Shown here: piece by piece, positions 1 to 28,243 of the stretch
How positions within the stretch are numbered: the stretch's first letter is position 1
Layout of the letters: the number at the start of each line of letters is the position of its first letter
From: Candidatus Bathyarchaeota archaeon RBG_13_38_9
Lineage (GTDB): Archaea > Thermoproteota > Bathyarchaeia > 40CM-2-53-6 > RBG-13-38-9
Assembly: GCA_001775955.1 (NCBI GenBank)
Contig: MEZD01000016.1
Span: 838 to 49,041 of the forward strand
Direction of reading: 5' to 3'
Length of the DNA stretch: 48,204 nucleotides
Position numbers and translations under genes: made by a program
Notes under the pieces: model-generated
The model's input: only the letters and a program-made list of their open reading frames with translations
What the model was told of the DNA's origin: nothing
The model's database searches: none

Positions 1-936
1 ATTTATTGAACTATTTAATTGATTTACCCATTGTAAACTGCCATTTAATATGAAGCCCCGGTCAAGAGGTAGAAAATTCACATTAACACCAACACCTTTG
101 CCGACAATATAGGTTGTTTGACTTAATGTAGGAGAATATGCGAAACCTGTTGTGGGAAAATACCCTGCTGATCCTTCAAGACGATATTCACCAGCATAAA
201 GTCCTGTGACATTAAAGAAGCCAGTGTTATTATCAACAAATCCTCTACCAATCATTCCTGTATGTACTTCAATTGCGTAAACTATGCCTTTTGTATCGAT
301 GATTATCGGAGTCAGAGGTTGTTCATCTCTAATAAATCCGAAGATATGACTTGGATCCTCTCTCATGCTAACGTGTACCTGAGTAATATTAGTGAGTGTA
401 CTTGGCGAGGAGAAATTAGGTTTGCCGTAATCGGGGGAAGAAATGTCATTATTCCAATCTGGTGTGATATAGACGGTGATGTTGTAAATACCTGATATTT
501 GTGGAGCCCTAAGTCCCTCTAAAAAGACGAATTTCGGAGGTGTGAATGGAAGATATATGGGGGGTTCGACAGTGATATTAGTACAGGTGTATTCTGGAGG
601 TTTTTGTATAGTTATATTGTAAGGGGCATTCTCGTTGTAAGGATAATATTCTGATGTGTCGTTTATTGTATAATAATAGTAGTCACTTGATATGTCTGAC
701 CTAATAAAGTAGGTATCGTTATTTAATTGGCGATTACTCTTTGAAATTACTCCCTCAAGGAATTCTCTGGGTAATTCTATTCTGACTGCAACTCCAGGTT
801 CATCTATACTAATATTGATGTCACCATTGGTTTCAAAGAACATACCCCAACCTTCAGTCGGTTTAAGCTCGGGTTGCCCAACAACTTTAGAAATAGGGAT
901 TGAATTGAGCATAAACGATATTACAAGGACGAGCAT
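1..936 (-). CDS. Secreted, sequon-rich surface protein, partial (3' end lies beyond nt 1)
   Basis: The minus-strand frame is open from 1017 down to nt 1; I checked every in-frame triplet. It is missing from the ORF track only because its stop is outside the window. Start is ATG at 936, or in-frame TTG at 969, which gives a better signal peptide (M)DTNRCVKLVLMLVLVISFMLNSIPISKVVGQP. Many N-x-S/T sequons. GFFNVTGLYAGEYRLEG resembles a carboxypeptidase-regulatory-like beta-sandwich. Confidence 0.7.
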   Translation of the reverse strand, partial: MLVLVISFMLNSIPISKVVGQPELKPTEGWGMFFETNGDINISIDEPGVAVRIELPREFLEGVISKSNRQLNNDTYFIRSDISSDYYYYTINDTSEYYPYNENAPYNITIQKPPEYTCTNITVEPPIYLPFTPPKFVFLEGLRAPQISGIYNITVYITPDWNNDISSPDYGKPNFSSPSTLTNITQVHVSMREDPSHIFGFIRDEQPLTPIIIDTKGIVYAIEVHTGMIGRGFVDNNTGFFNVTGLYAGEYRLEGSAGYFPTTGFAYSPTLSQTTYIVGKGVGVNVNFLPLDRGFILNGSLQWVNQLNSSIN

Positions 937-1088
937 CAGGACTAGTTTAACACATCTATTTGTGTCCAACCTGACCCCGCCTCCAGTAAAGTCTATAGTA
1001 AATTGGCTATTGATTGTCTAAATTACACAGATACTATGAATGGACAGTGTGTCCTAGTCCTATTGATTTTCAAATATGCGGTCGGATA

Positions 1089-1247
1089 TCATCTCCGATG
1101 TTTCTTGATCCAAGTTTTTAAAGCCTCTTCAACGACTGCGGATACCGTTTTGCCGTTTTTGATGGCTTCGATCTTTGCTTCTTTCCATAGATCTGGGTCG
1201 ACCTTTATCGAGGTCGCTTCTCTGAATATTGTTTCTGATCTAGACAT
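1089..1247 (-). CDS. Ribbon-helix-helix (CopG/Arc/MetJ-like) small DNA-binding protein, 52 aa
   Basis: Not in the ORF track (<60 aa). ATG 1247 to TGA 1089 gives MSRSETIFREATSIKVDPDLWKEAKIEAIKNGKTVSAVVEEALKTWIKKHRR. A short beta-strand (SIKVD) followed by two helices is the RHH pattern. The + strand ORF 1003..1263 over it has no recognisable features. Confidence 0.65.
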   Translation of the reverse strand: MSRSETIFREATSIKVDPDLWKEAKIEAIKNGKTVSAVVEEALKTWIKKHRR

Positions 1248-1356
1248 ACTCATTCACATCTAGAAATTCATAATATGGTAGTATTAACATATTGTGTTAA
1301 GGTGGTATATATGACACATAATTACACTTACAATAATAGTGTAATCTAGAAATTTT

Positions 1357-1373
1357 AAAAAAAAAAAGGGGGG
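1357..1373 (-). terminator. Oligo-T terminator of the pilin gene (C6 T11 on the minus strand)
   Basis: The plus strand shows A11 (1357-1367) then G6 (1368-1373), beginning 5 nt after the pilin stop codon (1379-1381). Archaeal intrinsic termination uses oligo-T tracts. An 8-bp inverted repeat attacact/agtgtaat (1321-1345) lies just beyond. Confidence 0.6.
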
Positions 1374-1378
1374 TGAGA

Positions 1379-1810
1379 TTATTGTGCTGAACCGTTGATT
1401 AGTGAGAAAGTGAAAACTCCACCAGTCTTAGTTACGCATTTTGCAGTGTAAGCAACTCCAGATGTATAACTACCCGAAGGAGTTACCGTTACTAAAATCA
1501 CAGGTCCTTGCACAGGAAGTGTTGTACCCATGTTCGTTGATGCCATATCTCCTCCTACGTACACTGCGTCTAACTCAACTTCAGAGTTGCCGACGTTTCT
1601 CATGTACAAATTGATTACACCACTAGTAGCGTTCCAGGAATAAGCGTCAACAATGACTTGTTCTCTTGTCTGACCTCCTCCACCAGTAGTCAGTGTACCA
1701 ATCAATCCCATGCTCCACACGTAGACTAGGATAGCGGCTGCAACAGCGATAGCAATCATAAGTAGAACAGCAATAACTGGTGAGACACCCTTCTCGTTAT
1801 TATTCTTCAT
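1379..1810 (-). CDS. Type IV pilin-like protein (probable major pilin), class-III signal peptide
   Basis: ORF 1379..1864. Preferred start is ATG 1810, with GGGGGTGA 9-10 nt upstream. The N-terminus MKNNNEKG|VSPVIAVLLMIAIAVAAAILVYVW matches the archaeal prepilin cleavage motif ([KR]G|[VA][ST]P + hydrophobic helix). The body is small and Gly/Thr/Val-rich. Confidence 0.8.
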   Translation of the reverse strand: MKNNNEKGVSPVIAVLLMIAIAVAAAILVYVWSMGLIGTLTTGGGGQTREQVIVDAYSWNATSGVINLYMRNVGNSEVELDAVYVGGDMASTNMGTTLPVQGPVILVTVTPSGSYTSGVAYTAKCVTKTGGVFTFSLINGSAQ

Positions 1811-1864
1811 ATGTTTATTCACCCCCATTTTACTCGTTTGTTTTTTTCGGAAACACAGGACCAT

Positions 1865-2236
1865 TGTTTATTCATTTTATTTAAGATCCTATTTTTCCTA
1901 TGCAATAATGGTAGTTTAATTATGATATTTAATATCGGTGTAACGAATAAATGATTAAAATAGTTACAGAATTAATCCTATAATATATTATAATATTATT
2001 ATTAATTACAAAGATGTTACAATATTAATTAATAATAAAATAACTATGAAGCACCTATGTATTTTATTATGCGTATTAGATGTTATAATAGGTGATACAT
2101 AGATGAAACATGTATGCTATGTAACATAATAAATAATAATAAAAAATAATTAAAATTTTAATAATTAACTATAATTCCAAAAGAAATATACCACAACCAT
2201 TATAGGTAATTCAACAAGATGATACTTTGAATATTA
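1865..2236. promoter_or_regulatory. Extremely AT-rich divergent promoter region between the two pilin genes
   Basis: About 370 bp with no ORF lie between the minus-strand pilin gene and the plus-strand pilus operon. There are many TATA-like runs (tataatat, ttataata, aataataat). Exact TATA/BRE positions cannot be fixed by eye. Confidence 0.45.
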
Positions 2237-2737
2237 ATGCACAAATTAAAATCATTTAGAAATAAGAAAGCTGTTAGTACAGTAATTGCTACATTACTAA
2301 TGATTAATGTCGCTGTTGTTTCAGGAGTTTTAGTTTACACTTGGACTCAGGGAGTGCTAGGCGAGTATACTTCTGGAGCAACATCATATTTTCATGATAG
2401 AGGAGAGACTATGCGTGAAAAAATCGCGATGGAAAATTTAAGGTATGAAAATACTACAAATTACAAATTGAACATAACAATAAGGAATACAGGAACCAAA
2501 GATGTTTGGATAGCAGCTATTTATGTTAATGGGACAGATATAATTTCTGGAGTTAATGCTACTTGGGATGGGAATCAAACAGTTTCACCTGTTGACGGGA
2601 AATATCATCTACTTGTAGCTCATGCTCTGACTTTCGCTTTTTCGGATCCAGGATACAATCAAGATGACATCATGCACGTCACCGTTGTTACATCTGAAGG
2701 ATGTAAAATTTCAGAATATTGGAAGGCGACTTGGTAA
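2237..2737 (+). CDS. Pilin-like protein with class-III signal peptide
   Basis: MHKLKSFRNKKA|VSTVIATLLMINVAVVSGVLVYTW shows a prepilin-type cleavage site plus a hydrophobic N-terminal helix. First gene of the operon. Confidence 0.75.
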   Translation: MHKLKSFRNKKAVSTVIATLLMINVAVVSGVLVYTWTQGVLGEYTSGATSYFHDRGETMREKIAMENLRYENTTNYKLNITIRNTGTKDVWIAAIYVNGTDIISGVNATWDGNQTVSPVDGKYHLLVAHALTFAFSDPGYNQDDIMHVTVVTSEGCKISEYWKATW

Positions 2738-2738
2738 A

Positions 2739-3770
2739 ATGAAGAAACAAAAAATCTCAAAGATATTATTCAAAGGCAGGAAAGGTGTAAGCGGAGCAAT
2801 CAGTGGCATATTTGTGATCTTAATTTGTTTTCTTGCGATAGGTGCAATATTCGTTTTCGCAATAAGTCAGGACAGATACAATCAAGTTGTAAATGAAAGG
2901 AATCGCATAGAATGGGAAATTCAAAATGAAAAATTCACAATTACGCATGCTCAAAGAAATGATAATGGCACTTTGAATGCAACTATATTCAATTTCGGTG
3001 GTATGACAGCTCATTTTGTTGACATATGGGTGACAATGAAAAACGGAACAAGCAATGAATCCTTGCAGAAATTATACAAAGTTAATTATTACATAAATCC
3101 AGCTGCAGAACTATCTGAAATTGGAGCTCAAAATGTAACTCTACTACCAAGTGGCCAAGAAGTTTCATGCATCAACCTTACAGAACCAGTCGTTGCAAAC
3201 ATAAACTATACAATAAAGGTAGTTTCTGAAAGAGGAAATGTAGCGAGTTACCTGTTAGAATATGTTTCACCTGATGAGGAAAGTGAAGGACCACCGGTAG
3301 CATTCTCTTTTGGCTCGATGGAAATCAATTGGGTAAACCCTAACAGTGAACCTGACTGGCATCCAGCATTTATAGAAAAAGGCAGTTTAGACTCACATGT
3401 CAGAGTAAATGAAGATCTATATTTCCGAGCGAAATTCACTAATGTTTGGAATGAACCGCTAAACATCTCACAAGGCAGTATTTTATTCCAAATATGTGCA
3501 GCACCAAGTAACCTCAAAGTGTTTAGTTTTGGTGGTCTGAAATACGCTGGACCGCAAATATGGGAGCCAGGTGTAGAAGTTACAATGGTATACAAATGTG
3601 ATTCTTGTACCTGGTCTAATGTTAATGAACTCGATGCATTATTTCCAGGTGGCGTTAATAAAGTTCCTTTTCTAGGTAGTGCAGCTTTTACTTCAGACAA
3701 AGAACCACAAGTGGATGACTACTTTTCATCAGCGATACTAATGGATGGACTACTCGTTTACAAAAACTAG
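2739..3770 (+). CDS. Large pilin-like / pilus accessory protein with class-III-like signal peptide
   Basis: The track ORF starts at 2664 but overlaps the upstream gene. ATG 2739 lies 1 nt after the upstream TAA. MKKQKISKILFKGRKG|VSGAISGIFVILICFLAIGAIFVF has a basic n-region, G at -1 and a TM helix. The body is sequon-rich and presumably extracellular. Confidence 0.7.
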   Translation: MKKQKISKILFKGRKGVSGAISGIFVILICFLAIGAIFVFAISQDRYNQVVNERNRIEWEIQNEKFTITHAQRNDNGTLNATIFNFGGMTAHFVDIWVTMKNGTSNESLQKLYKVNYYINPAAELSEIGAQNVTLLPSGQEVSCINLTEPVVANINYTIKVVSERGNVASYLLEYVSPDEESEGPPVAFSFGSMEINWVNPNSEPDWHPAFIEKGSLDSHVRVNEDLYFRAKFTNVWNEPLNISQGSILFQICAAPSNLKVFSFGGLKYAGPQIWEPGVEVTMVYKCDSCTWSNVNELDALFPGGVNKVPFLGSAAFTSDKEPQVDDYFSSAILMDGLLVYKN

Positions 3771-3830
3771 TTGATTCTTAGAACGAAATATGATGGCTTA
3801 AAATAATTCGGGGAAATTGAGGAAATCAAT

Positions 3831-5567
3831 TTGGAAGATTCAAAAATTAAATCCTTTTTAAATTTTAAAATCTCAAAAGATCAAATCAAAAAATTAAATA
3901 TTAACAAAGAATTATTTCAAAAACTGAAATCATCTTTTGAATTTCCAAACAGAGGAAAAAATAATTTAGTTAATGCTAAAATTGACAATACAACCATTTT
4001 CGCAAACGTTGATCTCACCGAATCTTCAAAGACTGAAACAACTGAAGATACTACTGTAGTTGCATCAAGACTGATAAAAGATGGGGTAGCTCCATCATTC
4101 AAAGAGATATACCCACTCAAACCACCTCATGTGTTTGCGGCCATATCAACAGATCCAGAAACACTCAGTTCAAGGTATCACGTATTAGAACCAATATTGA
4201 TACCAGAGGAAAAAATAGCTCTTGAAAAGATCAAATCAATAATGTTCGAAATAATAGATGTAAATCTAAATTCAATTGGAACAAGGGAAAAAGCAGAAGA
4301 ATGGCTAAGAGATTATGTAAAAAAAATAGTCATAGGATATAAAATAGAAATTGGAGAAGGATCACTAGATAAAATAGAATATTACTTAGCAAGAGATCTC
4401 ATAAATTATGGAAAGATAGACGCGTTAATGCACGATCATATGATAGAAGACATCTCATGTGACGGTCCACAAGTACCCCTCTACATTTGGCATAGGAAAT
4501 ATGAGTCCCTACCAACCAACGTCATATTCGAAAATGCTGATGAACTTGATCCATTTACGGTTAGACTAGCATACCTCTCAGGGAAACACATAAGCATAGC
4601 AAATCCCATGCTCGACGCAAGCCTAACAGATGGAAGCCGAATACAACTAACCTATGCTAAAGAAGTCACCAGAAAAGGTAGTACATTTACTATCAGAAGA
4701 TTTAGAGCAGATCCTCTAACCGTAACAGACCTAATAGATTTTAATACATTTAATTCACTCATGGCTGCTTGGTTCTGGCTCATTATAGAGAGAAAAGCAA
4801 ACATACTAATTGGAGGCGGAACAGCCTCAGGCAAAACAACATGCTTAAACTCCCTTTGTGCATTTATCCCAACATACGACAAGATTGTAACCATTGAAGA
4901 TACAGCAGAGATGAATCTACCAAACGAAAACTGGATCTCATCTATAGCAAGAATAGGATTCGGCTCAAGTGGAACTGCCGATATCAATCTCTTTGATTTG
5001 TTAAAAGCTGCAATGAGACAGAGACCTGACTATGTGATTGTAGGTGAGGTAAGAGGCAACGAGGCTTTCACTCTTTTCCAAGCTATGGCAACAGGCCACG
5101 GAGGATTATCAAGCATCCATTGTGATTCTATATCATCAGCACTAAACAGGTTAGAATCTGAACCAATGAATATCCCAAGAACTTTACTAACAATTCTGGA
5201 TGCGGTTGTTCTTCAATCTAAAGTTAGACTTGCTGACCGTGTCACCAGACGAATAAAAAGCATAGTAGAGATTGTAGAGATGGATCCAGTCTCAAAAGAA
5301 ATAATCACAAATGAAGTCTTCAGATGGGATCCAAAAACTGATATCTTCGAATATTCAGGCAAAAGTATCCTCTTAGATAGAATAATGAAAGATTTCGGCC
5401 TCGGTAAGGATTACCTCTCAAAGGAACTAGAAAGACGAAGCAAACTTCTGGAATATATGCTCCACCACAAGATCAGGAAAGTCGACAAAGTTGGAAAAAT
5501 TATCAGCGATTACTATGCGGATCCTGAAGGAGTTAGTGAAAGGGTTAATCTGAGGTCAACAGGATGA
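3831..5567 (+). CDS. Type IV pilus/archaellum assembly ATPase (FlaI/PilB/GspE, T2SSE family)
   Basis: Walker A GGGTASGKTT, Asp/Walker B region RQRPDYVIVGEVRG, His box ATGHGGLSSIH. TTG start in the track. Long low-complexity N-terminus. Confidence 0.9.
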   Translation: MEDSKIKSFLNFKISKDQIKKLNINKELFQKLKSSFEFPNRGKNNLVNAKIDNTTIFANVDLTESSKTETTEDTTVVASRLIKDGVAPSFKEIYPLKPPHVFAAISTDPETLSSRYHVLEPILIPEEKIALEKIKSIMFEIIDVNLNSIGTREKAEEWLRDYVKKIVIGYKIEIGEGSLDKIEYYLARDLINYGKIDALMHDHMIEDISCDGPQVPLYIWHRKYESLPTNVIFENADELDPFTVRLAYLSGKHISIANPMLDASLTDGSRIQLTYAKEVTRKGSTFTIRRFRADPLTVTDLIDFNTFNSLMAAWFWLIIERKANILIGGGTASGKTTCLNSLCAFIPTYDKIVTIEDTAEMNLPNENWISSIARIGFGSSGTADINLFDLLKAAMRQRPDYVIVGEVRGNEAFTLFQAMATGHGGLSSIHCDSISSALNRLESEPMNIPRTLLTILDAVVLQSKVRLADRVTRRIKSIVEIVEMDPVSKEIITNEVFRWDPKTDIFEYSGKSILLDRIMKDFGLGKDYLSKELERRSKLLEYMLHHKIRKVDKVGKIISDYYADPEGVSERVNLRSTG

Positions 5568-6475
5568 TAAATAAGAAAGTCAATTATGATTTCATCGAAT
5601 TCCTTTCATTAGCACCATACCGACTTCTAGGAGAAAAAATCAAAAAATTTTCTGGAATATTCGCAGGATTACAGAATCAATTGATGAGAGCCGATATCAA
5701 AGTTGCACACGAAGCATATGTTGCCATGATATTATTCTTCACCAGTCTAGGAGGAATATCAATCTTTGCGATAACAATCCTTGCAAGCATAATTTCTGGA
5801 GCCACAATAATAACTGCAGTACTAGCTTCATCCATAATGGGATTAATAGGAACTACAATAATATTCATCACATTATTTTCCTACCCTTCAATGCAAGTTG
5901 GCAATAGAAAAAGAATCCTAGAGGAAGAGCTTCCATACGTCGCAAGTCACATGGCAGTTCTATCAAAAGCAAACATGCCACCTGAAAGAATTTTCAGATC
6001 AATCACAAAAGTTGAAGCTGCGGGCATGAAAAGCATAGCAGCAGAAGAAGCAAGAAACATCATCAGAGATGTCAATTTTCTCGGCTATGACATAATCTCT
6101 GCAATGGAGCGACGAGTAAGATACGCCCCTTCACCGAAATTCGTTGATTATTTAGATGGATTCATATCTGTTAGTCGAACAGGAGGAAGTCTAACATCAT
6201 ATTTTATGGCAACCGCCAAAGCACTCATGGATTCCTCTAGAATCGCTGCGAGACAACTGCTTGATACTCTAGGAGGAATTGCTGAAGCTTACATTTCTAT
6301 GATGGTAGTTTTTCCACTACTTGTCATAGTAATGTTATCAATTATGGGAATGATAGGTGGGAATCTTGGTGGATTTGGCATATTATTCCTCATGCAGCTT
6401 ATGACATACTTGGCTATTCCAGCATTAGCATTAATTCTTCTATTATTGTTAGATTCAATCATGCCCCCAAGGTGA
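5564..6475 (+). CDS. Pilus platform membrane protein, first half (single T2SSF domain; FlaJ/TadB-like)
   Basis: Polytopic protein with a cytoplasmic T2SSF-like segment (LPYVASHMAVLSKANMPPERIFRSI...GYDIISAMERR). ATGA overlap with the ATPase gene. Confidence 0.8.
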   Translation: MINKKVNYDFIEFLSLAPYRLLGEKIKKFSGIFAGLQNQLMRADIKVAHEAYVAMILFFTSLGGISIFAITILASIISGATIITAVLASSIMGLIGTTIIFITLFSYPSMQVGNRKRILEEELPYVASHMAVLSKANMPPERIFRSITKVEAAGMKSIAAEEARNIIRDVNFLGYDIISAMERRVRYAPSPKFVDYLDGFISVSRTGGSLTSYFMATAKALMDSSRIAARQLLDTLGGIAEAYISMMVVFPLLVIVMLSIMGMIGGNLGGFGILFLMQLMTYLAIPALALILLLLLDSIMPPR

Positions 6476-7341
6476 CCCACATGCTAATGATGAGAGTTTC
6501 TAAGAGAGACAAGAAGTTAGTCAGCATAATCGCTGTAGCTCTAGGATTAACTCAAATTGTGACATTGCTCATAAATGAGTTATTTTTACAAGCTGACATC
6601 ATATTCAACACTGATCAACTAGTTTTTCTAGCACTCATTCTAGCACTATTCCCTCCAGCAATCATAAACCTTCTTGACATGCGATGGAGGATCAGTGTTG
6701 ATAAGAATATACCAGAATTTCTCAGAGAACTTTCAGAAGCTGGAAGAACGGGTGTCACACTTACTAGAGCTCTAGATTTGGCTTCAAAACGAAGATATGG
6801 TCCTTTATCATCTGAGCTTAAGCGAATCGTAAATAAATTATCATGGGGCGGAAATTTCACAGAGTCATTAAAAAATTTTGGAGAGAGAGTCGAAACAAAA
6901 CTTTCCAAAAGAACTTCGATTCTTTTGACTGAAATAAATCATTCGGGAGGAGACATAAAAGACGTTCTTGATACGGTAAGCAGACACATTAGAGAACTAC
7001 AAACAATAGAAGAAGAAAGAAGAAGCCAGCTCAGAACATACGTAGCAATTGTGTATATAGCCTTCTTCATCTTCATTTTTATAGACTACATTCTACTCAA
7101 AACATTCTTTGCAAAAATTGAATCCCTAAAAGAATCCCTAAGTGATGTAGGTGGTATGTTTCTTATGCAGGAACTTAGTTATGAAAATATTAAGACAATA
7201 ATGTTCCACATGGCAATAATGCAGGGACTTTTCGGAGGATTAATAGCTGGTAAAATGGGTGAAGGAGCTCTAGGTGCAGGTCTAAAACACTCATTGATTC
7301 TAATGATCATCGCATTCTTGATGTTTCTTTTCATAATGTAA
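6472..7341 (+). CDS. Pilus platform membrane protein, second half (single T2SSF domain; FlaJ/TadC-like)
   Basis: IPEFLRELSEAGRTGVTLTRALDLAS...LKNFGERV...SGGDIKDVLDTVSRHI is a T2SSF pattern flanked by TM helices. GTG 6472 overlaps the upstream TGA; an alternative ATG lies at 6481. Confidence 0.8.
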   Translation: MTHMLMMRVSKRDKKLVSIIAVALGLTQIVTLLINELFLQADIIFNTDQLVFLALILALFPPAIINLLDMRWRISVDKNIPEFLRELSEAGRTGVTLTRALDLASKRRYGPLSSELKRIVNKLSWGGNFTESLKNFGERVETKLSKRTSILLTEINHSGGDIKDVLDTVSRHIRELQTIEEERRSQLRTYVAIVYIAFFIFIFIDYILLKTFFAKIESLKESLSDVGGMFLMQELSYENIKTIMFHMAIMQGLFGGLIAGKMGEGALGAGLKHSLILMIIAFLMFLFIM

Positions 7342-7354
7342 AGGTGAAATTAAA

Positions 7355-8836
7355 ATGAACGGTAAAAAAACTATGATGGCTGAGAAATCAATTCTAGGAA
7401 TTGTAGATTATGATCCAGAATCATCTAATCTATCATCCAATCAATGTGATATCTCCATCTCTTATGATATTGATCTGAAAAGAGGAGTTTTCATCAAAAT
7501 TGGTAATGGACAATCATACTACATCGCTCAAGTTGTTGATGGACCATATTTCACGAAAGGTAGTATCAAATCAAGATACATAACAGAACTTGTTTCATTA
7601 ATAGAAAATGGGGTAGCAAAAGTAGTTCTAACTCGTCCAGCTCCAGGAACAAGTATCGAACCTATCAAAAGCGACATTGTTCAAAAATTCCTAGGAATTT
7701 CAGGAAATATGAGCATGGGGCACATCCTAACTGACGACAGTGTTGACGTTCTCATGGACACAGCAACGTTGAGTAGACATGTTGGAGTCTTCGGTACAAC
7801 TGGAAGTGGAAAATCAAATACTATACAGGTACTGATGGAAGAAGCATGCAACCGAGGATTCTCTATAATGATCTTCGACGTAGAAGGAGAATATGTAGAA
7901 ATGGATAAGCCCACAGACAGACTCCTAGATATATTAGCAAAGTTCGATCTAAAACCTACTGGAGCAAAAGATCTGGATGTATATGTACCTTATCCATGTG
8001 ACTGTAAAAGAGAAGATGCAACACGATTCGGGATCAGTTTCAAGGATGTAGACAAAGATGTCTTCTCAGAAGTTTCTGGCCTCAATAGAATGGAGCAACT
8101 CTATTTCCAAGATTTAATTGATAAGGTTAGGGCAGTAACCCCAGACTCAAAACCAGTGACACTAGAAGCAGTGATTAATCGTCTTATAACAAGATTGAAA
8201 GGCCAAACCGATCGTCCCACTATGCCTCCATTCATAGCAGAAGCACATACAACTCTATTTTCTAAATTGCGTCTCATGTCAGAGCAGAAAATAGTTGATG
8301 TGGATATCCCAATTATAAACATGGATAAGGTCATCCAACCTGGACGAGTATCTGTTATAGATGTGAGTGATGCATCTGATTATATCAGAAATGTTGTGAT
8401 GGCTGAATTACTTCATAATGCTTTCAAGTATAAGATTGCTCATCCAGAATCACCACCTTTACTAGCAGTCCTAGAAGAAGCTCATGCTTTCATAAGCAAA
8501 GAAAAAAGAGATCGAATGCTAGCTACTTTAATGTTAATTATCGAAGTGGCTAGACGAGGCAGGAAAAGAGGGCTATGTCTAGGAATAGTAACTCAACAGC
8601 CAGCGCACCTTCCATCAGAACTTTTGGAATTGTGTAACACCAGAGTAATTCACAGAATGAGCTCAGTCACCAATATCAACTGTCTAAAAGAATCTACTGG
8701 AAATGTCCCTGAAGGAATGTGGAATACTATACCATCATTAGGAGTAGGAGAGAGTATACTTTCTTCACATAAGTACACTAGGGCACTCGCGATACAAGTG
8801 AGACCATCAGTCTCAAAGAGAATATCAACAGATTAG
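7355..8836 (+). CDS. HerA/FtsK-class P-loop ATPase (DUF87/HerA-like)
   Basis: HAS-barrel-like N-terminus (GQSYYIAQVVDGPY), Walker A HVGVFGTTGSGKSNT, FDVEGEY, Walker B LLAVLEEAHAF, arginine-rich RRGRKRGLCLGIVTQQP. GGTGA motif 8 nt upstream of the ATG. Confidence 0.85.
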   Translation: MNGKKTMMAEKSILGIVDYDPESSNLSSNQCDISISYDIDLKRGVFIKIGNGQSYYIAQVVDGPYFTKGSIKSRYITELVSLIENGVAKVVLTRPAPGTSIEPIKSDIVQKFLGISGNMSMGHILTDDSVDVLMDTATLSRHVGVFGTTGSGKSNTIQVLMEEACNRGFSIMIFDVEGEYVEMDKPTDRLLDILAKFDLKPTGAKDLDVYVPYPCDCKREDATRFGISFKDVDKDVFSEVSGLNRMEQLYFQDLIDKVRAVTPDSKPVTLEAVINRLITRLKGQTDRPTMPPFIAEAHTTLFSKLRLMSEQKIVDVDIPIINMDKVIQPGRVSVIDVSDASDYIRNVVMAELLHNAFKYKIAHPESPPLLAVLEEAHAFISKEKRDRMLATLMLIIEVARRGRKRGLCLGIVTQQPAHLPSELLELCNTRVIHRMSSVTNINCLKESTGNVPEGMWNTIPSLGVGESILSSHKYTRALAIQVRPSVSKRISTD

Positions 8837-8848
8837 AGGAATGAATTA

Positions 8849-10411
8849 ATGCACAAAATTAATTCTATCAATATAGGCAAGAGTCTACTACTATTATTCG
8901 TGGTAATGATGATGTTATTTCCAGTATGTCTAGCACAAGATGAAGTTGAAGACATAGAAATAACAGATGAAATTGAGGATGAGAGAATTGTTATCACTGA
9001 ACTATATGTAGATGGTGAAGATGAAATGATTGTAAGTGACCGAGCATTAATACTAACAGGAAATATCACAGTAATGAATGCAAGTGAACTAATGATAACT
9101 AGTTCAGATATTCAACTCTCTATTAGAGGCGAAAGAAGTTACAATGTCTCAATTCTTGATGAAGGAAATATGATAATCAGTAACTCTACACTAAACACAC
9201 TATCAAACGCTTCCTTAGTTAAACTATTAGATAACGGCCAATTAAAAGTGATAAACTCAAACTTAACAGATTTCAAATCACTCTCCACATCAAGCAACTC
9301 AACTCTAATTGTTCAGGGAAGTCGAGTCAATATCAACAAGATCATTTGCACAGGCAAGAACATCTCATTCACTGAAAGTAGTATGCCACACGGTGACCTA
9401 AACGTAACAGTAACAGAAGTTAATCTAGAAGATTTTATAGGCGATAATATATTCTTAGATATGAATAATTCAGTACTAAAAAGTATTCAATGCAACCTAC
9501 TTAAAATCAGAACTGTTGACTCAGTATATTTAAACGAATCAAAGATCAAAAACTGTGAGATCGAATCTAAAAATGAGACATTTGTTGTAGACTCAACATT
9601 TGAGTCTCTTACATTGAACTCTTCAGGTATAGCAATTAACGTTTCAACATCAGAAGGAGGAGCACGAGCTGGAGGGGCCATCAGAGCTGCTGAAAATTCT
9701 ACTACTAAAATTCTGCGATATTGGTATTTGACATTGAATGTTACAGAAATGGCTGGATTGGGTATACCTGCCAAGATTACTGTGGAAGATTATTTTGGAA
9801 ATACGATTCTAGAAGGTAAATCAGATGTTTATGGTCTATATACGGAGCCAATTATAGCCGAGATCATAAACAGCACAAAAACAGTTTTCGTTGGCAACTA
9901 CAAAGTTAAGGCTACATATGCTAATGTTACAACAAAATATACTCCAATAGTACTGGATAGAAACGTAGATATCGATTTACAATTTAAAAGTCCCATACCT
10001 CTAGAAACATCAACAAAATTGATGGTGCCCCCAGATGCAGTTATGGTTGATGAATCAGTAAAAATCGAAGGATGGATCGTAAAAGAATTACCGGAAGAAG
10101 ATATAGAAATTGTTGCGTCTGGCCCTGGCAATTCCAGTTTTACATTGATCTGTAAGACAGATGAGAATGGTGTATTCGAAAAAGAGTTCAGCCTAAATAC
10201 TGAGGGTCAATGGACTGTTTATGCTGATTGGATCGGTGGAGCAAGTTACGGACAAAGATTTACTAAAAGTCAAGCATTTATGCTGACTGTTCAGCCCAGA
10301 CCATCATTGATGATTCTACTGATTCAAGCTCTTCCAATAGCGGTTGTTGTAATAGGCATATTAACAACCATAACATTTCTGGCTTTGGGACGCTCCAAGT
10401 CTAAGGTTTAA
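8849..10411 (+). CDS. Secreted, C-terminally membrane-anchored beta-helix/Ig-like surface protein
   Basis: Signal peptide MHKINSINIGKSLLLLFVVMMMLFPVCLA|QDE, then an acidic stretch. Repetitive N-x-S/T-rich segments look beta-helix-like (NSTLNTLSNASL.., NSNLTDFKSL.., NSVLKSIQCNL..). Two Ig/CarboxypepD_reg-like segments follow. C-terminal TM helix plus basic tail (ALPIAVVVIGILTTITFLALGRSKSKV). Confidence 0.7.
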   Translation: MHKINSINIGKSLLLLFVVMMMLFPVCLAQDEVEDIEITDEIEDERIVITELYVDGEDEMIVSDRALILTGNITVMNASELMITSSDIQLSIRGERSYNVSILDEGNMIISNSTLNTLSNASLVKLLDNGQLKVINSNLTDFKSLSTSSNSTLIVQGSRVNINKIICTGKNISFTESSMPHGDLNVTVTEVNLEDFIGDNIFLDMNNSVLKSIQCNLLKIRTVDSVYLNESKIKNCEIESKNETFVVDSTFESLTLNSSGIAINVSTSEGGARAGGAIRAAENSTTKILRYWYLTLNVTEMAGLGIPAKITVEDYFGNTILEGKSDVYGLYTEPIIAEIINSTKTVFVGNYKVKATYANVTTKYTPIVLDRNVDIDLQFKSPIPLETSTKLMVPPDAVMVDESVKIEGWIVKELPEEDIEIVASGPGNSSFTLICKTDENGVFEKEFSLNTEGQWTVYADWIGGASYGQRFTKSQAFMLTVQPRPSLMILLIQALPIAVVVIGILTTITFLALGRSKSKV

Positions 10412-10485
10412 AAAAGGATTTTACTATCAAAATTCAAATATCAATAACGAGATTCATTACAAATCCAATGTGAAGTACTATTTTC

Positions 10486-11709
10486 TTAAAATACAATATA
10501 CGATGGAAGTTGAACAAATAATGACCATACAATAACTGCAATAATATATCCAGCAAGTATTAACTTAGCATAATTTTTCTTTTCAGAATTTATGTAGATT
10601 TTTTCTGTAATATAGACTAGAGATATGAATGCAAATGGTAAACCTGATAATATATACCAAATGAAAGGTTTTCCAGTTGATGTTGTAATTAACAACGATA
10701 TGAATACTAAAGGTACAGGAATCATTTTTTTATTATCTCGAAACAAATAATAAAAAGCAAGAATCGTAGCTGAGAATGATAGAGGCCACGTTAACGGATT
10801 AAACGTACCGATCAAACTTATGCCTTTTTCTACGGGAGAAAAAGAAAGAAACTTACTCACAGTATCAAAATGTATAACAGTAATATCTGAAGGTCCCTCG
10901 ATGCCTAATAGAAAATTTAGCAGTATCCAAAATGGAGGTGGAGCACCCATTCCAATACGCATACTCTGATGAAACCCTAAAATCCTCAATTGAAGGTAGA
11001 TGAAATCAATTATAGTATTTCCTGCAAAAAAGAAAACAGCATATATAGACGAGTAGGTTAGAACTGCAATTACCAGACCTATAGGATATAACTTCAAATT
11101 GCGCCCATTTTTGTTAATTAGATAATATATTGGTGGTATAATTACTAAGAAGAAAGTAATCCATTTACAGGACAGAGCTAATCCTATTGTTATATATAGA
11201 AATAGAAAATTCCATTTTGTCTTATTGGTAATCATTAGTAAAATTGCTAGTGCTGTAAAGAATGTCGCATAGATGTCAAGCATAGAAAAAGATGAAAATT
11301 GAATGTACAGTTTATCCATACTTAATATTAAAATCGGTAATACTGTAAATGGAAAAACATGCAAAATTTTCTTCGAGATCATGTAGACTAAAAAAAGTGT
11401 GAAAACAGAAATAATTAGGCTCAGTAATGCCTGATTCATGAAAATTAACTCTGAAACACCAATAAGATATTTTGCTAGAGGAGGATGTTCAAAATTTATG
11501 GTGTCAGGAGTAATCCCGTTAATATAACGCCAACCAGTTAACGCATAAAGTTTATCATCTGAAAAAATTGATCCTTTGTGAATCGAGGTTGAATATTCTT
11601 CAAGCAATGTCTTTTGCTCAAATTGGACATAGAATACACTATTACATCGGTATATGAAAAAAACAATAATCAATACAAGAATGATCTGCTCTAATTTAGG
11701 AATCCGCAT
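10486..11709 (-). CDS. GT-C fold glycosyltransferase (PMT/ArnT-like, dolichyl-phosphate-sugar dependent)
   Basis: About 11 TM helices. The first-loop motif DDKLYA...INFEHPPLAKYLIG matches the DE...HPPLGK signature of PMT_2/GT39-type enzymes. Confidence 0.65.
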   Translation of the reverse strand: MRIPKLEQIILVLIIVFFIYRCNSVFYVQFEQKTLLEEYSTSIHKGSIFSDDKLYALTGWRYINGITPDTINFEHPPLAKYLIGVSELIFMNQALLSLIISVFTLFLVYMISKKILHVFPFTVLPILILSMDKLYIQFSSFSMLDIYATFFTALAILLMITNKTKWNFLFLYITIGLALSCKWITFFLVIIPPIYYLINKNGRNLKLYPIGLVIAVLTYSSIYAVFFFAGNTIIDFIYLQLRILGFHQSMRIGMGAPPPFWILLNFLLGIEGPSDITVIHFDTVSKFLSFSPVEKGISLIGTFNPLTWPLSFSATILAFYYLFRDNKKMIPVPLVFISLLITTSTGKPFIWYILSGLPFAFISLVYITEKIYINSEKKNYAKLILAGYIIAVIVWSLFVQLPSYIVF

Positions 11710-11760
11710 ATTACATCTACATTAAATAAAATTTCAACTGGAAAATACTATATTTGAATT

Positions 11761-13245
11761 TCAATTTGTTGATTCCAATAGTTTTATGACTTTATCAGTT
11801 ATCTCGTCCATGTTATCTCCCTCAATGAACTGGATATTATTTGCTTTGAGGAAGTCTCTTGCTTCTTGATGAAGTACTGGCGATGCAATCAGTAAACTTG
11901 TTGCTGATATATTATCTGTAAATTTTGCATATGAAGATAGAACCGTTTTTGTATCGACAACTTCTGACGATGCCACCAAATCTAAAGCAACTAATTTGCT
12001 TTTTTTGTTGGCCGTTAATGTGAATTCATGACTGACGCCAGTTTTACCCTTAAGGTAACCTGGAACATCTACTGAATATTGTATTTTTCTAAGTGCGTCA
12101 GCTATTGTAAGCACAATCAATTTTTCTTTAGCTTCAAATCTAACGTCTTGATTTAATGTGAATGAATGAGTATCAAGAAGATCACAATTTTTCAATTGAA
12201 ATTCATTTGAGCAGTCTCTACAAAAATAGGATCTTAGTGGATCGCTGAACAGGCTGCCACATGATTGGCATTCAAAGGAAACGCCAACAGATTTTAGTTC
12301 GAGATCTTCACTGATTTTTTTTCCACATTTTGGACATATAATTCCAGATGGTGTCTGATACTCATTCTGTTTATAGATAGCTCCACAATCAAGATGTTGC
12401 ATCAATCTGTTTATGTTGACTTTGTGAGAATCGCATTCCGGACACTTGCTTCTATTGAAAACCCTTGCTGATTTATGACATTGTGGACAAGCAATTAGCT
12501 TTTCATATAGATCTTCATTTAGTACACCTGATTCAACTAATTCATCTAGAGTGTATTGTATCTTTCTTTGAGAGTATCCCTTTAGATCAGAAAGTACCGG
12601 ATAAGATGGAGTTTCACTTCTCACCATTATTGGTTCGATAATTTCAAGATTTGAATTAATGAATCTCCTTAATATATCCTGAACAATTGGCCTACTGTAT
12701 AATCTATCCCGTAATCCTTTTAGAAGTTCAGGTTTCTTCTTCGCTTCTGACCATAATTGTCTTTTAACATGAAAAATTTCCCCTTCTTCTATGGTTTCTG
12801 TCTCGGCAGGCTCGGGGGCCGATTCTAACTTATCAAGTTTTTCAAGAAGTTTCTCAGTCTGAGGTTCTGGTTTAGTTTCTTCCACTTTCTTAGCCTCCTT
12901 TATACGTTTGACATGGAAACTATCAAGAATCATCATAAAACCTGCGACAAGAAAAAAAATGTCCAAATAACCCCATGAATACATTTTAGTACTAAACAAT
13001 TTGTTTACTAAAGCTAATGCTATACAAGCAGTTCCAGCCGCTATTAAAAATTCATTCATTTCTTTTATCGCGCCATAGATCCCAGCTCCAATCGCAGCAA
13101 AAAAACCAAATGTGAGGATTAATGAATAAATAAAGCCTGGATCACCAGGATTCCAAGAAAAGCCGCTCCCACCAAGATAGGTTACTCCACTAACAATAAT
13201 AGCAACTAATAGAATAATGATGCCGGCTAAACCTATCTGGCGCAA
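11761..13245 (-). CDS. Membrane-tethered wHTH + triple zinc-ribbon protein with C-terminal alpha/beta domain (possibly TackOD1-like)
   Basis: Four N-terminal TM helices and an E/K/P-rich linker. TrmB-like wHTH (YSQRKIQYTLDELVESGVLNEDLYEKLIACPQC). CxxC pairs: CPQC..CPEC, CPKC..CQSC, CRDC. The C-terminal roughly 120 aa form an alpha/beta region. Confidence 0.6.
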   Translation of the reverse strand: MRQIGLAGIIILLVAIIVSGVTYLGGSGFSWNPGDPGFIYSLILTFGFFAAIGAGIYGAIKEMNEFLIAAGTACIALALVNKLFSTKMYSWGYLDIFFLVAGFMMILDSFHVKRIKEAKKVEETKPEPQTEKLLEKLDKLESAPEPAETETIEEGEIFHVKRQLWSEAKKKPELLKGLRDRLYSRPIVQDILRRFINSNLEIIEPIMVRSETPSYPVLSDLKGYSQRKIQYTLDELVESGVLNEDLYEKLIACPQCHKSARVFNRSKCPECDSHKVNINRLMQHLDCGAIYKQNEYQTPSGIICPKCGKKISEDLELKSVGVSFECQSCGSLFSDPLRSYFCRDCSNEFQLKNCDLLDTHSFTLNQDVRFEAKEKLIVLTIADALRKIQYSVDVPGYLKGKTGVSHEFTLTANKKSKLVALDLVASSEVVDTKTVLSSYAKFTDNISATSLLIASPVLHQEARDFLKANNIQFIEGDNMDEITDKVIKLLESTN

Positions 13246-28150: not shown

Positions 28151-28243
28151 TGGTAGCCCGGGGGAGATTCGAACTCCCGTCTACGGGTCCAAAGCCCGCT
28201 ATGCTTGAACGGTTAATCTCTTTGTCCACTACACTACCGGGCT
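28151..28243 (-). tRNA. tRNA-Gln (anticodon UUG) with about 17-nt insert in the D-loop; CCA encoded
   Basis: Minus-strand read: AGCCCGG-TA-GTGT-AGTGGAC[aaagagattaaccgttc]AA-GCAT-A-GCGGG-CTTTGGA-CCCGT-AGAC-GGGAG-TTCGAAT-CTCCC-CCGGGCT-A-CCA. There is no insert in the anticodon loop. Confidence 0.8.

Follow-up and report, generated by a model that had tools for sequence, protein, structure and literature searches.

The 48,204-nt stretch of DNA analyzed here (the window) comes from Candidatus Bathyarchaeota archaeon RBG_13_38_9 (GCA_001775955.1, MEZD01000016.1, positions 838-49,041 of the forward strand), and it contains a type IV pilus (T4P) locus whose motor operon includes a gene for a HerA-family ATPase. 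This operon has four genes, encoding a FlaI-type ATPase, two half-size platform proteins and the HerA-family ATPase, compared with the usual two or three. The linkage between the HerA-like gene and the pilus genes is real and is conserved across Bathyarchaeia. The HerA fold of the ATPase points to DNA, and the position of its gene points to the motor.

Linkage of the HerA-like gene to pilus genes

We assembled 35 loci that carry a HerA-like orthologue (at least 39% identity over at least 250 amino acids) from metagenome look-ups, a scan of species-representative genomes and FlaI-anchored look-ups, and the window proteins were mapped onto them by tblastn. The set, in which the named homologues are annotated as Bathyarchaeia, comprises 19 loci of the window type, 14 of a distant type and two outliers; many of them are mutually related, so the counts given here measure conservation across a lineage and not independent acquisitions. 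In the window-type loci the ATPase is 49-88% identical to that of the window and the gene order is FlaI, first platform gene (FlaJ-a), second platform gene (FlaJ-b), HerA-like gene. FlaJ-b lies directly upstream of the HerA-like gene, on the same strand, in all 18 window-type loci with upstream sequence. Where genes were called (six loci), the two either overlap, by 1 nt, or lie up to 13 nt apart, and the alignment-edge distances are 14-187 nt. In the window itself the genes are separated by a 13-nt spacer with AGGTGA ahead of the ATG at 7355. This interval (7342-7354) is too short for an independent promoter and the junction stays short in the relatives; the HerA-like gene appears to be translationally coupled to the platform genes. 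Because the arrangement is repeated in dozens of related contigs, with ATPase identity down to 49%, it is far beyond chance.

The distant-type loci, whose ATPases are 41-43% identical, present another organization. The HerA-like gene heads a module of HerA-like, KaiC-like (PF06745) and TackOD1 genes, in which the KaiC-like gene is 34-72 nt downstream of the HerA-like gene in 13 of the 14 loci and the TackOD1 gene is less than 900 nt from it in all of them. The FlaI, FlaJ-a, FlaJ-b and pilin genes are found 4-9 kb away, on either strand, in 12 of the 14. The HerA-like gene is not linked to pilus genes in the two outliers, L022 and L027. A first-pass annotation of this DNA had proposed to check whether the HerA-like gene stays with FlaI and FlaJ genes in relatives, and it does so in both classes of loci.

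The linkage is also seen in the reverse direction. Five long contigs were picked solely by a FlaI homologue of 58-64% identity, blind to the ATPase; four of them carry the HerA-like ATPase and all five carry TackOD1. L090 presents pilus genes and TackOD1, with no HerA-like gene within 10 kb. In L089 and L092 the surroundings are metabolic genes, and a bare operon of FlaI, two FlaJ genes and the HerA-like gene stands there without pilins or adhesins close by. This ties the ATPase to the motor module, not to the filament and adhesin set.

The HerA-like ATPase was recognized by its central DUF87/HerA domain (7e-25). The AlphaFold2 model, for which 32 orthologues served as input, has a mean pLDDT of 90.3; in it a beta-barrel at the N-terminus leads into a RecA-like core that bears a helical insert. 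The top Foldseek match over the full length is S. solfataricus HerA (4d2i; E 1e-30, TM-score 0.67-0.72), and further matches are the T. kodakarensis HerA-NurA-DNA complex, D. radiodurans HerA, Sir2-HerA and DUF4297-HerA (E 1e-30 to 1e-22), with 14-20% identity in the structural alignments. In agreement with the model, a sequence search of the PDB returned 4d2i at 3.7e-24, in a match that takes in both Walker regions (A and B). The protein thus presents the features that define the HerA fold, namely a HAS-barrel with a RecA-like ATPase, Walker A and B motifs and an arginine finger, in support of the HerA-type identity that the first-pass annotation had given to this DUF87 protein. Across the 32 orthologues H142, the Walker A stretch G147-S154, the Walker B residues E374, E375 and H377 and an ARRGRKRG motif (R400-G406) are invariant, and the arginine finger R141 is nearly so. 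Since these catalytic motifs are conserved, it is reasonable to infer that the ring ATPase is active. The protein has no hydrophobic or transmembrane segments. A search of 1.84 billion cluster representatives gave only 58 at E <= 1e-30, of which only two full-length representatives exceed 400 bits; judged from these clusters, the family is compact.

Comparison with equivalog models separates the ATPase from the named families that share its fold. The scores, with the model cut-offs, are 109.7 bits (800) for HerA_Thermprot, 92.6 (600) for CedD, 87.6 (970) for helicase_HerA, 70.7 (800) for HerA_antiphage and 27.4 (700) for CedB. The best VirB4-type match is VirB4_plasma, at 32 bits against 590, and TIGR00929 (VirB4_CagE) gave no match at E <= 0.1. 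As a control, the CedD model was applied to Sulfolobales proteins in L035 and L050 that the same genome scan had retrieved, and they passed it with 657 and 743 bits. These CedD proteins align with the HerA-like ATPase by BLASTP at 21-24% identity, within the ATPase core only. Orthology to CedB or CedD was discarded, as true CedD proteins pass the model and the window ATPase does not. A repair HerA of the HerA-NurA type was discarded as well: the scores are far under the cut-offs, and NurA, Mre11 and Rad50 (as well as Sir2 and DUF4297) were found neither among the scanned window proteins nor in the 13 relatives' loci with gene and Pfam calls. A defense HerA (Sir2-HerA, DUF4297-HerA) was rejected given the score under the cut-off, the housekeeping context and the PADLOC output, which holds generic HerA matches of at most 110 bits for the ATPase and none for its neighbors. 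On profile scores and gene context, the HerA-like ATPase is not orthologous to the HerA of HerA-NurA, to CedB/CedD, to VirB4 or to anti-phage HerA.

These results bear on an alternative listed by the first-pass annotation, that an unrelated gene was captured into the operon; here this would be a HerA paralogue of repair or anti-phage function with no functional tie to the pilus. The generic HerA repair and anti-phage models are indeed the best-scoring named families (about 110 bits), and the outlying relatives L022 and L027 lie in unrelated contexts. But those scores are far under equivalog cut-offs of 800-970 bits, none of the expected partners (NurA, Mre11, Rad50, Sir2, DUF4297) accompanies the gene in the annotated relatives or in the scanned parts of the window, and PADLOC finds it partnerless. 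The order from FlaJ to the ATPase is kept, with short gaps, from 88% down to 49% ATPase identity. We regard capture of an unrelated gene as very improbable.

Several observations on individual loci are recorded here. In the distant type (L005-L008, L020-L031, L091, L093; for example, L006 10001-13304), a second TackOD1 paralogue often precedes the module, and three tandem paralogues of about 400 amino acids with class III signal peptides are found 4-9 kb from it. In L027 (1694-4974; an unclassified archaeon from Guaymas), the orthologue of 39% identity is followed after 3 nt by a gene for a 588-aa all-coiled-coil protein. An actin-family gene (PF00022, crenactin-like) lies about 300 nt past the TackOD1 gene that flanks the minimal operon in L089 (19503-20777) and L092 (19474-20748). 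Contigs with an orthologue were also assigned to unrelated phyla, namely L023 (labeled Methylomirabilota), P0111 (Dormibacteraeota) and L026 (Methanocellales); their gene content is like that of Bathyarchaeia loci, which suggests mis-binning, or possibly transfer in the case of L026. A different HerA-like protein of 624-642 amino acids, with an N-terminal ATPase core and no barrel match, is encoded in the Nitrososphaerales loci L060 (9839-17537) and L062 (1287-11639), 1.5-4 kb upstream of FlaI and a fused FlaJ, with a TnpB/Cas12f-like gene inserted between in L062. We did not count this extension as support, since L060 and L062 are the only two syntenic relatives and the other Nitrososphaerales HerA-like genes are unlinked.

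Composition and extent of the locus

The components of the locus are listed in Table 1. The seven close-packed, co-directional open reading frames of the first-pass annotation were all found at its coordinates, and its junctions were re-read in the sequence. The two plus-strand pilin genes are separated by the single nucleotide 2738, between a TAA stop (2735-2737) and the ATG at 2739. The stop of FlaI and the start of the first platform gene overlap as ATGA (5564-5567), the two platform genes overlap as GTGA (6472-6475), and a 12-nt spacer with GAGGA precedes the ATG at 8849 downstream of the HerA-like gene. As the boundaries of the unit, however, 2237 and 10411 are too narrow, as conserved minus-strand neighbors are found on both sides; the pilus unit appears to span about 1-13245 of the window. 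Both pilin-led transcription units presumably have their promoters in the intergenic region between the divergent pilin genes.

Table 1 Features of the pilus locus, in window coordinates
Feature	Coordinates	Strand	Basis
Large secreted surface protein, N-terminal ~306 codons of ~900 aa	1..918	-	Cut by window start; tblastn, signal peptide
Short pilin, 161 aa from first ATG	1379..1864	-	TIGR02537, UpsA match, class III signal peptide
AT-rich divergent intergenic region, 372 nt	1865..2236		Read from sequence
Pilin-like protein, 166 aa	2237..2737	+	TIGR02537, class III signal peptide
Larger pilin-like protein, 343 aa	2739..3770	+	Class III signal peptide, weak UpsA match
FlaI/PilB-family secretion ATPase, 578 aa from TTG	3831..5567	+	T2SSE and PilB3_C; GAGGA upstream
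Platform first half (FlaJ/TadC N-half), 303 aa	5564..6475	+	T2SSF; start overlaps FlaI stop
Platform second half (FlaJ/TadC C-half), 289 aa	6472..7341	+	T2SSF; start overlaps preceding stop
Soluble HerA-family ATPase, 493 aa	7355..8836	+	DUF87, AlphaFold2 and Foldseek HerA match
Membrane-anchored surface glycoprotein, 520 aa	8849..10411	+	AlphaFold2 model; no family match
Polytopic PMT/ArnT-like glycosyltransferase, 407 aa	10486..11709	-	Pfam PMT 1.5e-6; ~10 hydrophobic segments
Membrane-anchored TackOD1 protein, 494 aa	11761..13245	-	Pfam TackOD1 4e-24

Of the parts that mark an archaeal type IV filament system, the locus has a FlaI/PilB ATPase, a polytopic platform and filament subunits with class III signal peptides. 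Profile searches confirm the filament core that the first-pass annotation had read in the first five plus-strand genes. The FlaI ATPase matches T2SSE (PF00437) at 3e-37 and 128.6 bits (cut-off 24.9), together with PilB3_C, and is 55-93% identical to Bathyarchaeia homologues. The first platform half, which has hydrophobic segments, matches T2SSF (PF00482) at 2e-12 and 47.5 bits (cut-off 25.2) and aligns with positions 6-236 of the ArlJ model; the second half matches T2SSF at 5e-21 and 75.5 bits and aligns with ArlJ positions 260-542 and UpsF positions 261-445. An archaellum was rejected, as FlaI scores 412 bits against the 550-bit cut-off of the archaellum FlaI model, ArlF scores 27.6 against 110 bits and the window has no ArlH/KaiC-like gene.

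Three genes encode pilin-like proteins. The 161-aa protein is probably the major pilin: its class III signal peptide ends in NNNEKG followed by VSPVIAVLLMIAIAV, it matches the archaellin/type IV pilin N-terminal model TIGR02537 at 44 bits (cut-off 20) and UpsA at 3e-14, and it is 69% identical to the products of two tandem pilin genes in L001. The 166-aa pilin (RNKKA followed by VSTVIATLLMINVAVV) scores 26.2 bits with TIGR02537, with weak ArlF and UpsA matches, and has a single hydrophobic segment, at the N-terminus. In the 343-aa protein the class III signal peptide was identified by inspection (KGRKG followed by VSGAISGIFVILICFLAIG); homologues occur in L002, L004, L015 and L018, and the protein is likely a minor pilin or tip protein. 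The corresponding class III signal peptidase (PibD/FlaK, Peptidase_A24) is commonly encoded away from the pilus locus. None was found in the window by tblastn with the A24 peptidase of L002, and an A24 peptidase gene adjoins the related loci L002, L091 and L093.

The AlphaFold2 model of the 520-aa protein (pLDDT 85) presents a Sec signal-peptide helix, a short acidic linker, an all-beta N-terminal half, two immunoglobulin (Ig)-like sandwiches and a C-terminal transmembrane helix, and the sequence has 19 NxS/T N-glycosylation sequons. The signal peptide and the C-terminal anchor are as the first-pass annotation had described them. Its assignment as a beta-helix is verified only in part: the strands of the N-terminal half are short and regular in a beta-solenoid pattern, while Foldseek returned Ig-like/CARDB-type matches alone, to the Ig-like sandwiches, and the beta-helix identity was set aside as unconfirmed. 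Profile searches gave no family match and the family is narrow (27 clusters). Conservation is lowest for this partner: of the window-type loci, 12 have its gene beside that of the ATPase, it is displaced in L014 and L018, and L089 and L092 lack it. Adhesin or S-layer-like proteins have been reported from TACK pilus loci (PMC4858521), and the 520-aa protein fits among them. The first-pass annotation overstated the case in setting this protein apart from archaeal T4P loci. The truncated surface protein of about 900 amino acids at the window start, whose translation includes a signal peptide, is 52% identical over 309 amino acids to a 908-aa protein of L001 by tblastn. It is CarboxypepD_reg/PEGA-like in relatives and flanks the pilus genes in L001, L002, L004, L015, L017, L019, L008, L028 and L029. 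The glycosyltransferase and TackOD1 genes keep their window positions in L001, L002 and L009-L011, where the glycosyltransferase is 47-79% identical.

The TackOD1 protein matches PF18551 at 85.6 bits (cut-off 32). It is composed of four N-terminal transmembrane helices, a linker, a region resembling a winged helix-turn-helix (wHTH), five CxxC zinc ribbons and a C-terminal domain resembling a restriction endonuclease (REase). Alignment of 21 homologues shows the wHTH-like stretch, five invariant CxxC pairs and the C-terminal domain of about 140 amino acids to be shared, whereas the four N-terminal helices are found only in window-type orthologues. Galperin et al. (2018; PMC5847659), who named TackOD1, described the zinc-ribbon part only. 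When the C-terminal ~140 amino acids (window 11761-12189, minus strand) were scanned alone, Mrr_cat was matched in 13 of the 21 homologues (best 3e-5) and the "NACHT-associated inactive restriction endonuclease 1" (NA-iREase1) in five, which suggests a restriction-endonuclease-like C-terminus for TackOD1 proteins. Residues K441, G400, F408 and P456 are invariant in this domain, and the first acidic residue is kept in one paralogue group only. A profile search of the PDB with the domain gave nothing significant. We considered and rejected an active nuclease, given the poorly kept acidic residue and the lack of PDB support; because the canonical (D/E)xK lysine is missing, the REase-like domain is probably non-catalytic. 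The TackOD1 gene is within 6 kb of the ATPase gene in nine of the 19 window-type loci, and most of the remainder are short contigs; no TackOD1 gene follows in L004, L015, L018 and L019, although their downstream DNA extends for about 6 kb or more.

Beyond 13245 the window encodes housekeeping functions (rpS12, a P-type ATPase, carAB, Sua5, SAICAR synthetase, DinB, PGK and others), and its composition is uniform, at 33-39% G+C. A mobile element or integrative and conjugative element was rejected on this uniformity, on the ribosomal and biosynthetic flanks and on the absence of visible integrase and conjugation genes. The housekeeping surroundings indicate that the pilus cluster lies in chromosomal DNA and not in a mobile element or defense island. 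Rfam gave no matches at gathering thresholds anywhere in the window. ARAGORN reported a 93-nt tRNA-like gene at 28151-28243 (minus strand, anticodon undetermined), possibly an intron-containing archaeal tRNA. The 977-aa protein at 44155-47088 (minus strand) combines PD40/beta-propeller with NosD/right-handed beta-helix repeats and is probably another large surface protein, unlinked to the pilus cluster.

Candidate roles of the second ring ATPase

In the role that we tentatively favor, the HerA-like ATPase would form a hexameric ring docked to the pilus base (FlaI/FlaJ) on its cytoplasmic side and would thread DNA, so coupling the pilus to DNA uptake or exchange. The TackOD1 protein would be a nucleic-acid-binding partner held at the membrane, while the pilins, the 520-aa and ~900-aa surface proteins and the glycosyltransferase would provide the extracellular filament and adhesin part. 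DNA is favored as the substrate because the characterized ATPases of the same architecture all work on it (to our knowledge, this holds for every characterized HerA-clade motor) and because the constant partner, TackOD1, has domains of nucleic-acid type, with zinc ribbons and a region like Mrr_cat and NA-iREase1. It is favored also because the nearest pilus-related precedent serves DNA import, CedB and CedD being required for this process in Sulfolobales alongside Ups pili (PMC11868833). A further reason is that natural transformation of Methanococcus requires T4P, with the archaeal DNA transporter unidentified and no ComEC homologue found (PMC10133366). On these grounds we put pilus-coupled handling of DNA somewhat short of an even chance.

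Several findings weigh against this proposal, beginning with the mutual relatedness of the loci. No membrane DNA channel (ComEC, CedA/VirB6 or TctA-like) was recognizable in the window or in the related loci. The ATPase itself shows neither a transmembrane segment nor an obvious membrane-binding one, unlike about half of the CedB and CedD proteins. In VirB4, which belongs to the sister clade of HerA, such ATPases can energize pilus biogenesis and do not only pump DNA. The probable lack of catalysis in the REase-like domain of TackOD1 counts here as well. Response regulators also use TackOD1 as an output domain (PMC5847659), and pilus loci without the ATPase have it too, for example L090 and the thaumarchaeal loci of the PMC4858521 supplement; a merely regulatory function of TackOD1 is possible. 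The KaiC-like protein of the distant type, which scores nearer to KaiC-domain models than to ArlH, fits a signaling role as well as a recombination role. Pilus dynamics or regulation is almost as probable a role as DNA handling.

A role in pilus dynamics would make the HerA-like ring a second motor or checkpoint of the pilus that handles no DNA. Such a ring might drive retraction or disassembly, dislocate pilins in the manner of VirB4 or switch FlaI activity in a FlaH-like way. The gene lies inside the assembly-motor operon right after the platform genes, even where pilins and adhesins are not nearby (L089, L092), and the distant orthologues adjoin a KaiC-like ATPase, of the family of archaellum FlaH. 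Archaeal T4P clusters are without PilT-type retraction ATPases, yet some archaeal pili retract (PMC11178815); type IV secretion systems (T4SS), moreover, pair a VirB11-family ATPase (the family of FlaI) with VirB4, of the HerA sister clade in the classification of PMC4858521. But the ATPase has no meaningful match to VirB4 models, its KaiC-like neighbor is nearer to KaiC than to ArlH, its recurrent partner has domains of nucleic-acid type, and the pilus locus without the ATPase in L090 indicates that it is not strictly required for this pilus type. In addition, we know of no characterized ATPase with a HAS-barrel and a RecA core that acts on pilins. A pilus motor or checkpoint is the main competing role, which we hold to be somewhat less probable than DNA handling.

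In its most far-reaching form the DNA-handling role implies a hybrid machine of a kind not described before. The pilus base would have two stacked rings, FlaI of the VirB11 family and a second ring of the HerA/VirB4 superfamily; the second would act as the cytoplasmic DNA translocase of an archaeal competence or exchange pilus, and the membrane-tethered TackOD1 would receive or process the DNA. In this detailed form the proposal is possible, though less likely than not.

Regulation offers a different use of the same partners. The HerA-like protein and TackOD1, together with the KaiC-like protein where present, would then form a cytoplasmic regulatory or signaling module for the pilus genes, with the membrane-tethered TackOD1 as a DNA-binding regulator comparable to the membrane-bound ArnR. 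In agreement with this, TackOD1 proteins have a wHTH-like region and zinc ribbons, and TackOD1 is the most constant neighbor, present in five of five FlaI-anchored loci compared with four of five for the ATPase. TackOD1 is, moreover, a described response-regulator output domain that was noted in thaumarchaeal T4P loci (PMC5847659; as arCOG06883 in PMC4858521), and KaiC-family ATPases have been listed as potential T4P regulators (PMC4858521). Against such a module, a full-length, catalytically intact HerA ring would be an unusual and costly regulator. The window-type ATPase is apparently coupled to the platform genes while TackOD1 is encoded on the opposite strand, 3 kb off, and the 48-kb window has no KaiC-like gene. 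We consider a purely regulatory module improbable.

The locus touches two open questions: what carries DNA across the membrane in archaeal transformation or pilus-dependent exchange (PMC10133366), and how archaeal T4P retract or switch without a PilT-type ATPase (PMC11178815). For both, the conserved second ring ATPase that this globally abundant lineage of sediments encodes in its pilus motor operon is a concrete candidate. The accessory set of TACK-type pili is widened to HerA-like, TackOD1 and sometimes KaiC-like proteins. Should the ATPase be merely a regulator, the result would still be useful, as a modest correction to models of T4P loci.

Comparison with known systems

Structural comparison places the window ATPase closest to the HerA of HerA-NurA (4d2i; T. 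kodakarensis 9x1m), with which it shares fold, size, catalytic motifs and solubility. The two differ in sequence, with 16-18% identity in the structural alignments, and in context, as the window gene sits in a pilus operon without NurA, Mre11 or Rad50 neighbors. With CedB and CedD (PMC11868833) it has in common a HerA-clade core with a GRK motif and an association with archaeal T4P and, as proposed here, with DNA transfer, and CedD is its second-best named model. Unlike them, it has neither a transmembrane segment nor a VirB4-like N-domain, its N-terminus being modeled as a beta-barrel. No CedA/CedE (VirB6-like) channel, CedA1 pilus gene or VirB2-like pilin was recognized among the neighbors, a search in which no CedA-specific profile was used. 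While ced and ups are separate loci in Sulfolobales, the window ATPase gene is inside the T4P operon. The suggestion of the first-pass annotation that Ups and Ced functions are fused in this locus is not sustained, as the ATPase scores far from both Ced models, has no transmembrane segment and has no recognized Ced partners.

The pairing of a VirB11/FlaI-family ATPase with an ATPase of the FtsK-HerA superfamily in one machine is known from VirB4 and VirB11 of T4SS and conjugation. The window locus is unlike a T4SS in having no significant VirB4 match, in its pilins and platform, which are of T4P type (class III signal, TadC) and not VirB2/VirB6, and in its chromosomal housekeeping context. The archaellum provides a second parallel, for ArlH/FlaH is likewise a second cytoplasmic P-loop ATPase encoded with FlaI and FlaJ, and the distant loci also carry a KaiC-like gene. 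The view that archaeal T4P loci use either a KaiC/RecA-like FlaH or no second ATPase accordingly needs nuance, as distant orthologues of the HerA-like ATPase adjoin a KaiC-like ATPase too. The window locus differs from the archaellum in having a HerA rather than a KaiC/RecA fold in this position, and in having no ArlF, ArlG, ArlX or ArlCDE genes.

The closest described relative of the whole locus is the TACK "clade 4" T4P, especially subsystem 4A (PMC4858521; bioRxiv 10.64898/2026.04.22.720090), a likeness that rests on gene content and lineage. Shared with it are the FlaI-family ATPase, two platform genes, pilins of FlaG/FlaF/PilA type and an adhesin or S-layer-like protein; zinc-ribbon proteins of arCOG06883 (TackOD1) and KaiC-like ATPases are reported as neighbors, and the subsystem is reported in Bathyarchaeota. 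Makarova, Koonin & Albers (2016; PMC4858521) noted these zinc-ribbon proteins and KaiC-like ATPases in T4P loci and did not discuss HerA; in their supplementary neighborhood table the HerA helicase arCOG00280 appears only as unremarked rows, for example beside FlaI in Cenarchaeum symbiosum. The census of type IV filaments by Sivabalasarma & Albers (2026; bioRxiv 10.64898/2026.04.22.720090) does not mention HerA, and its description matches the rest of the window locus. In the literature we found no description of a HerA-type ATPase as a member of a T4P operon, nor a paper that catalogues this architecture as a T4P subtype. While the subsystem 4A papers do not describe a HerA-family ATPase as a component, in the lineage of the window it is a conserved member of the motor operon.

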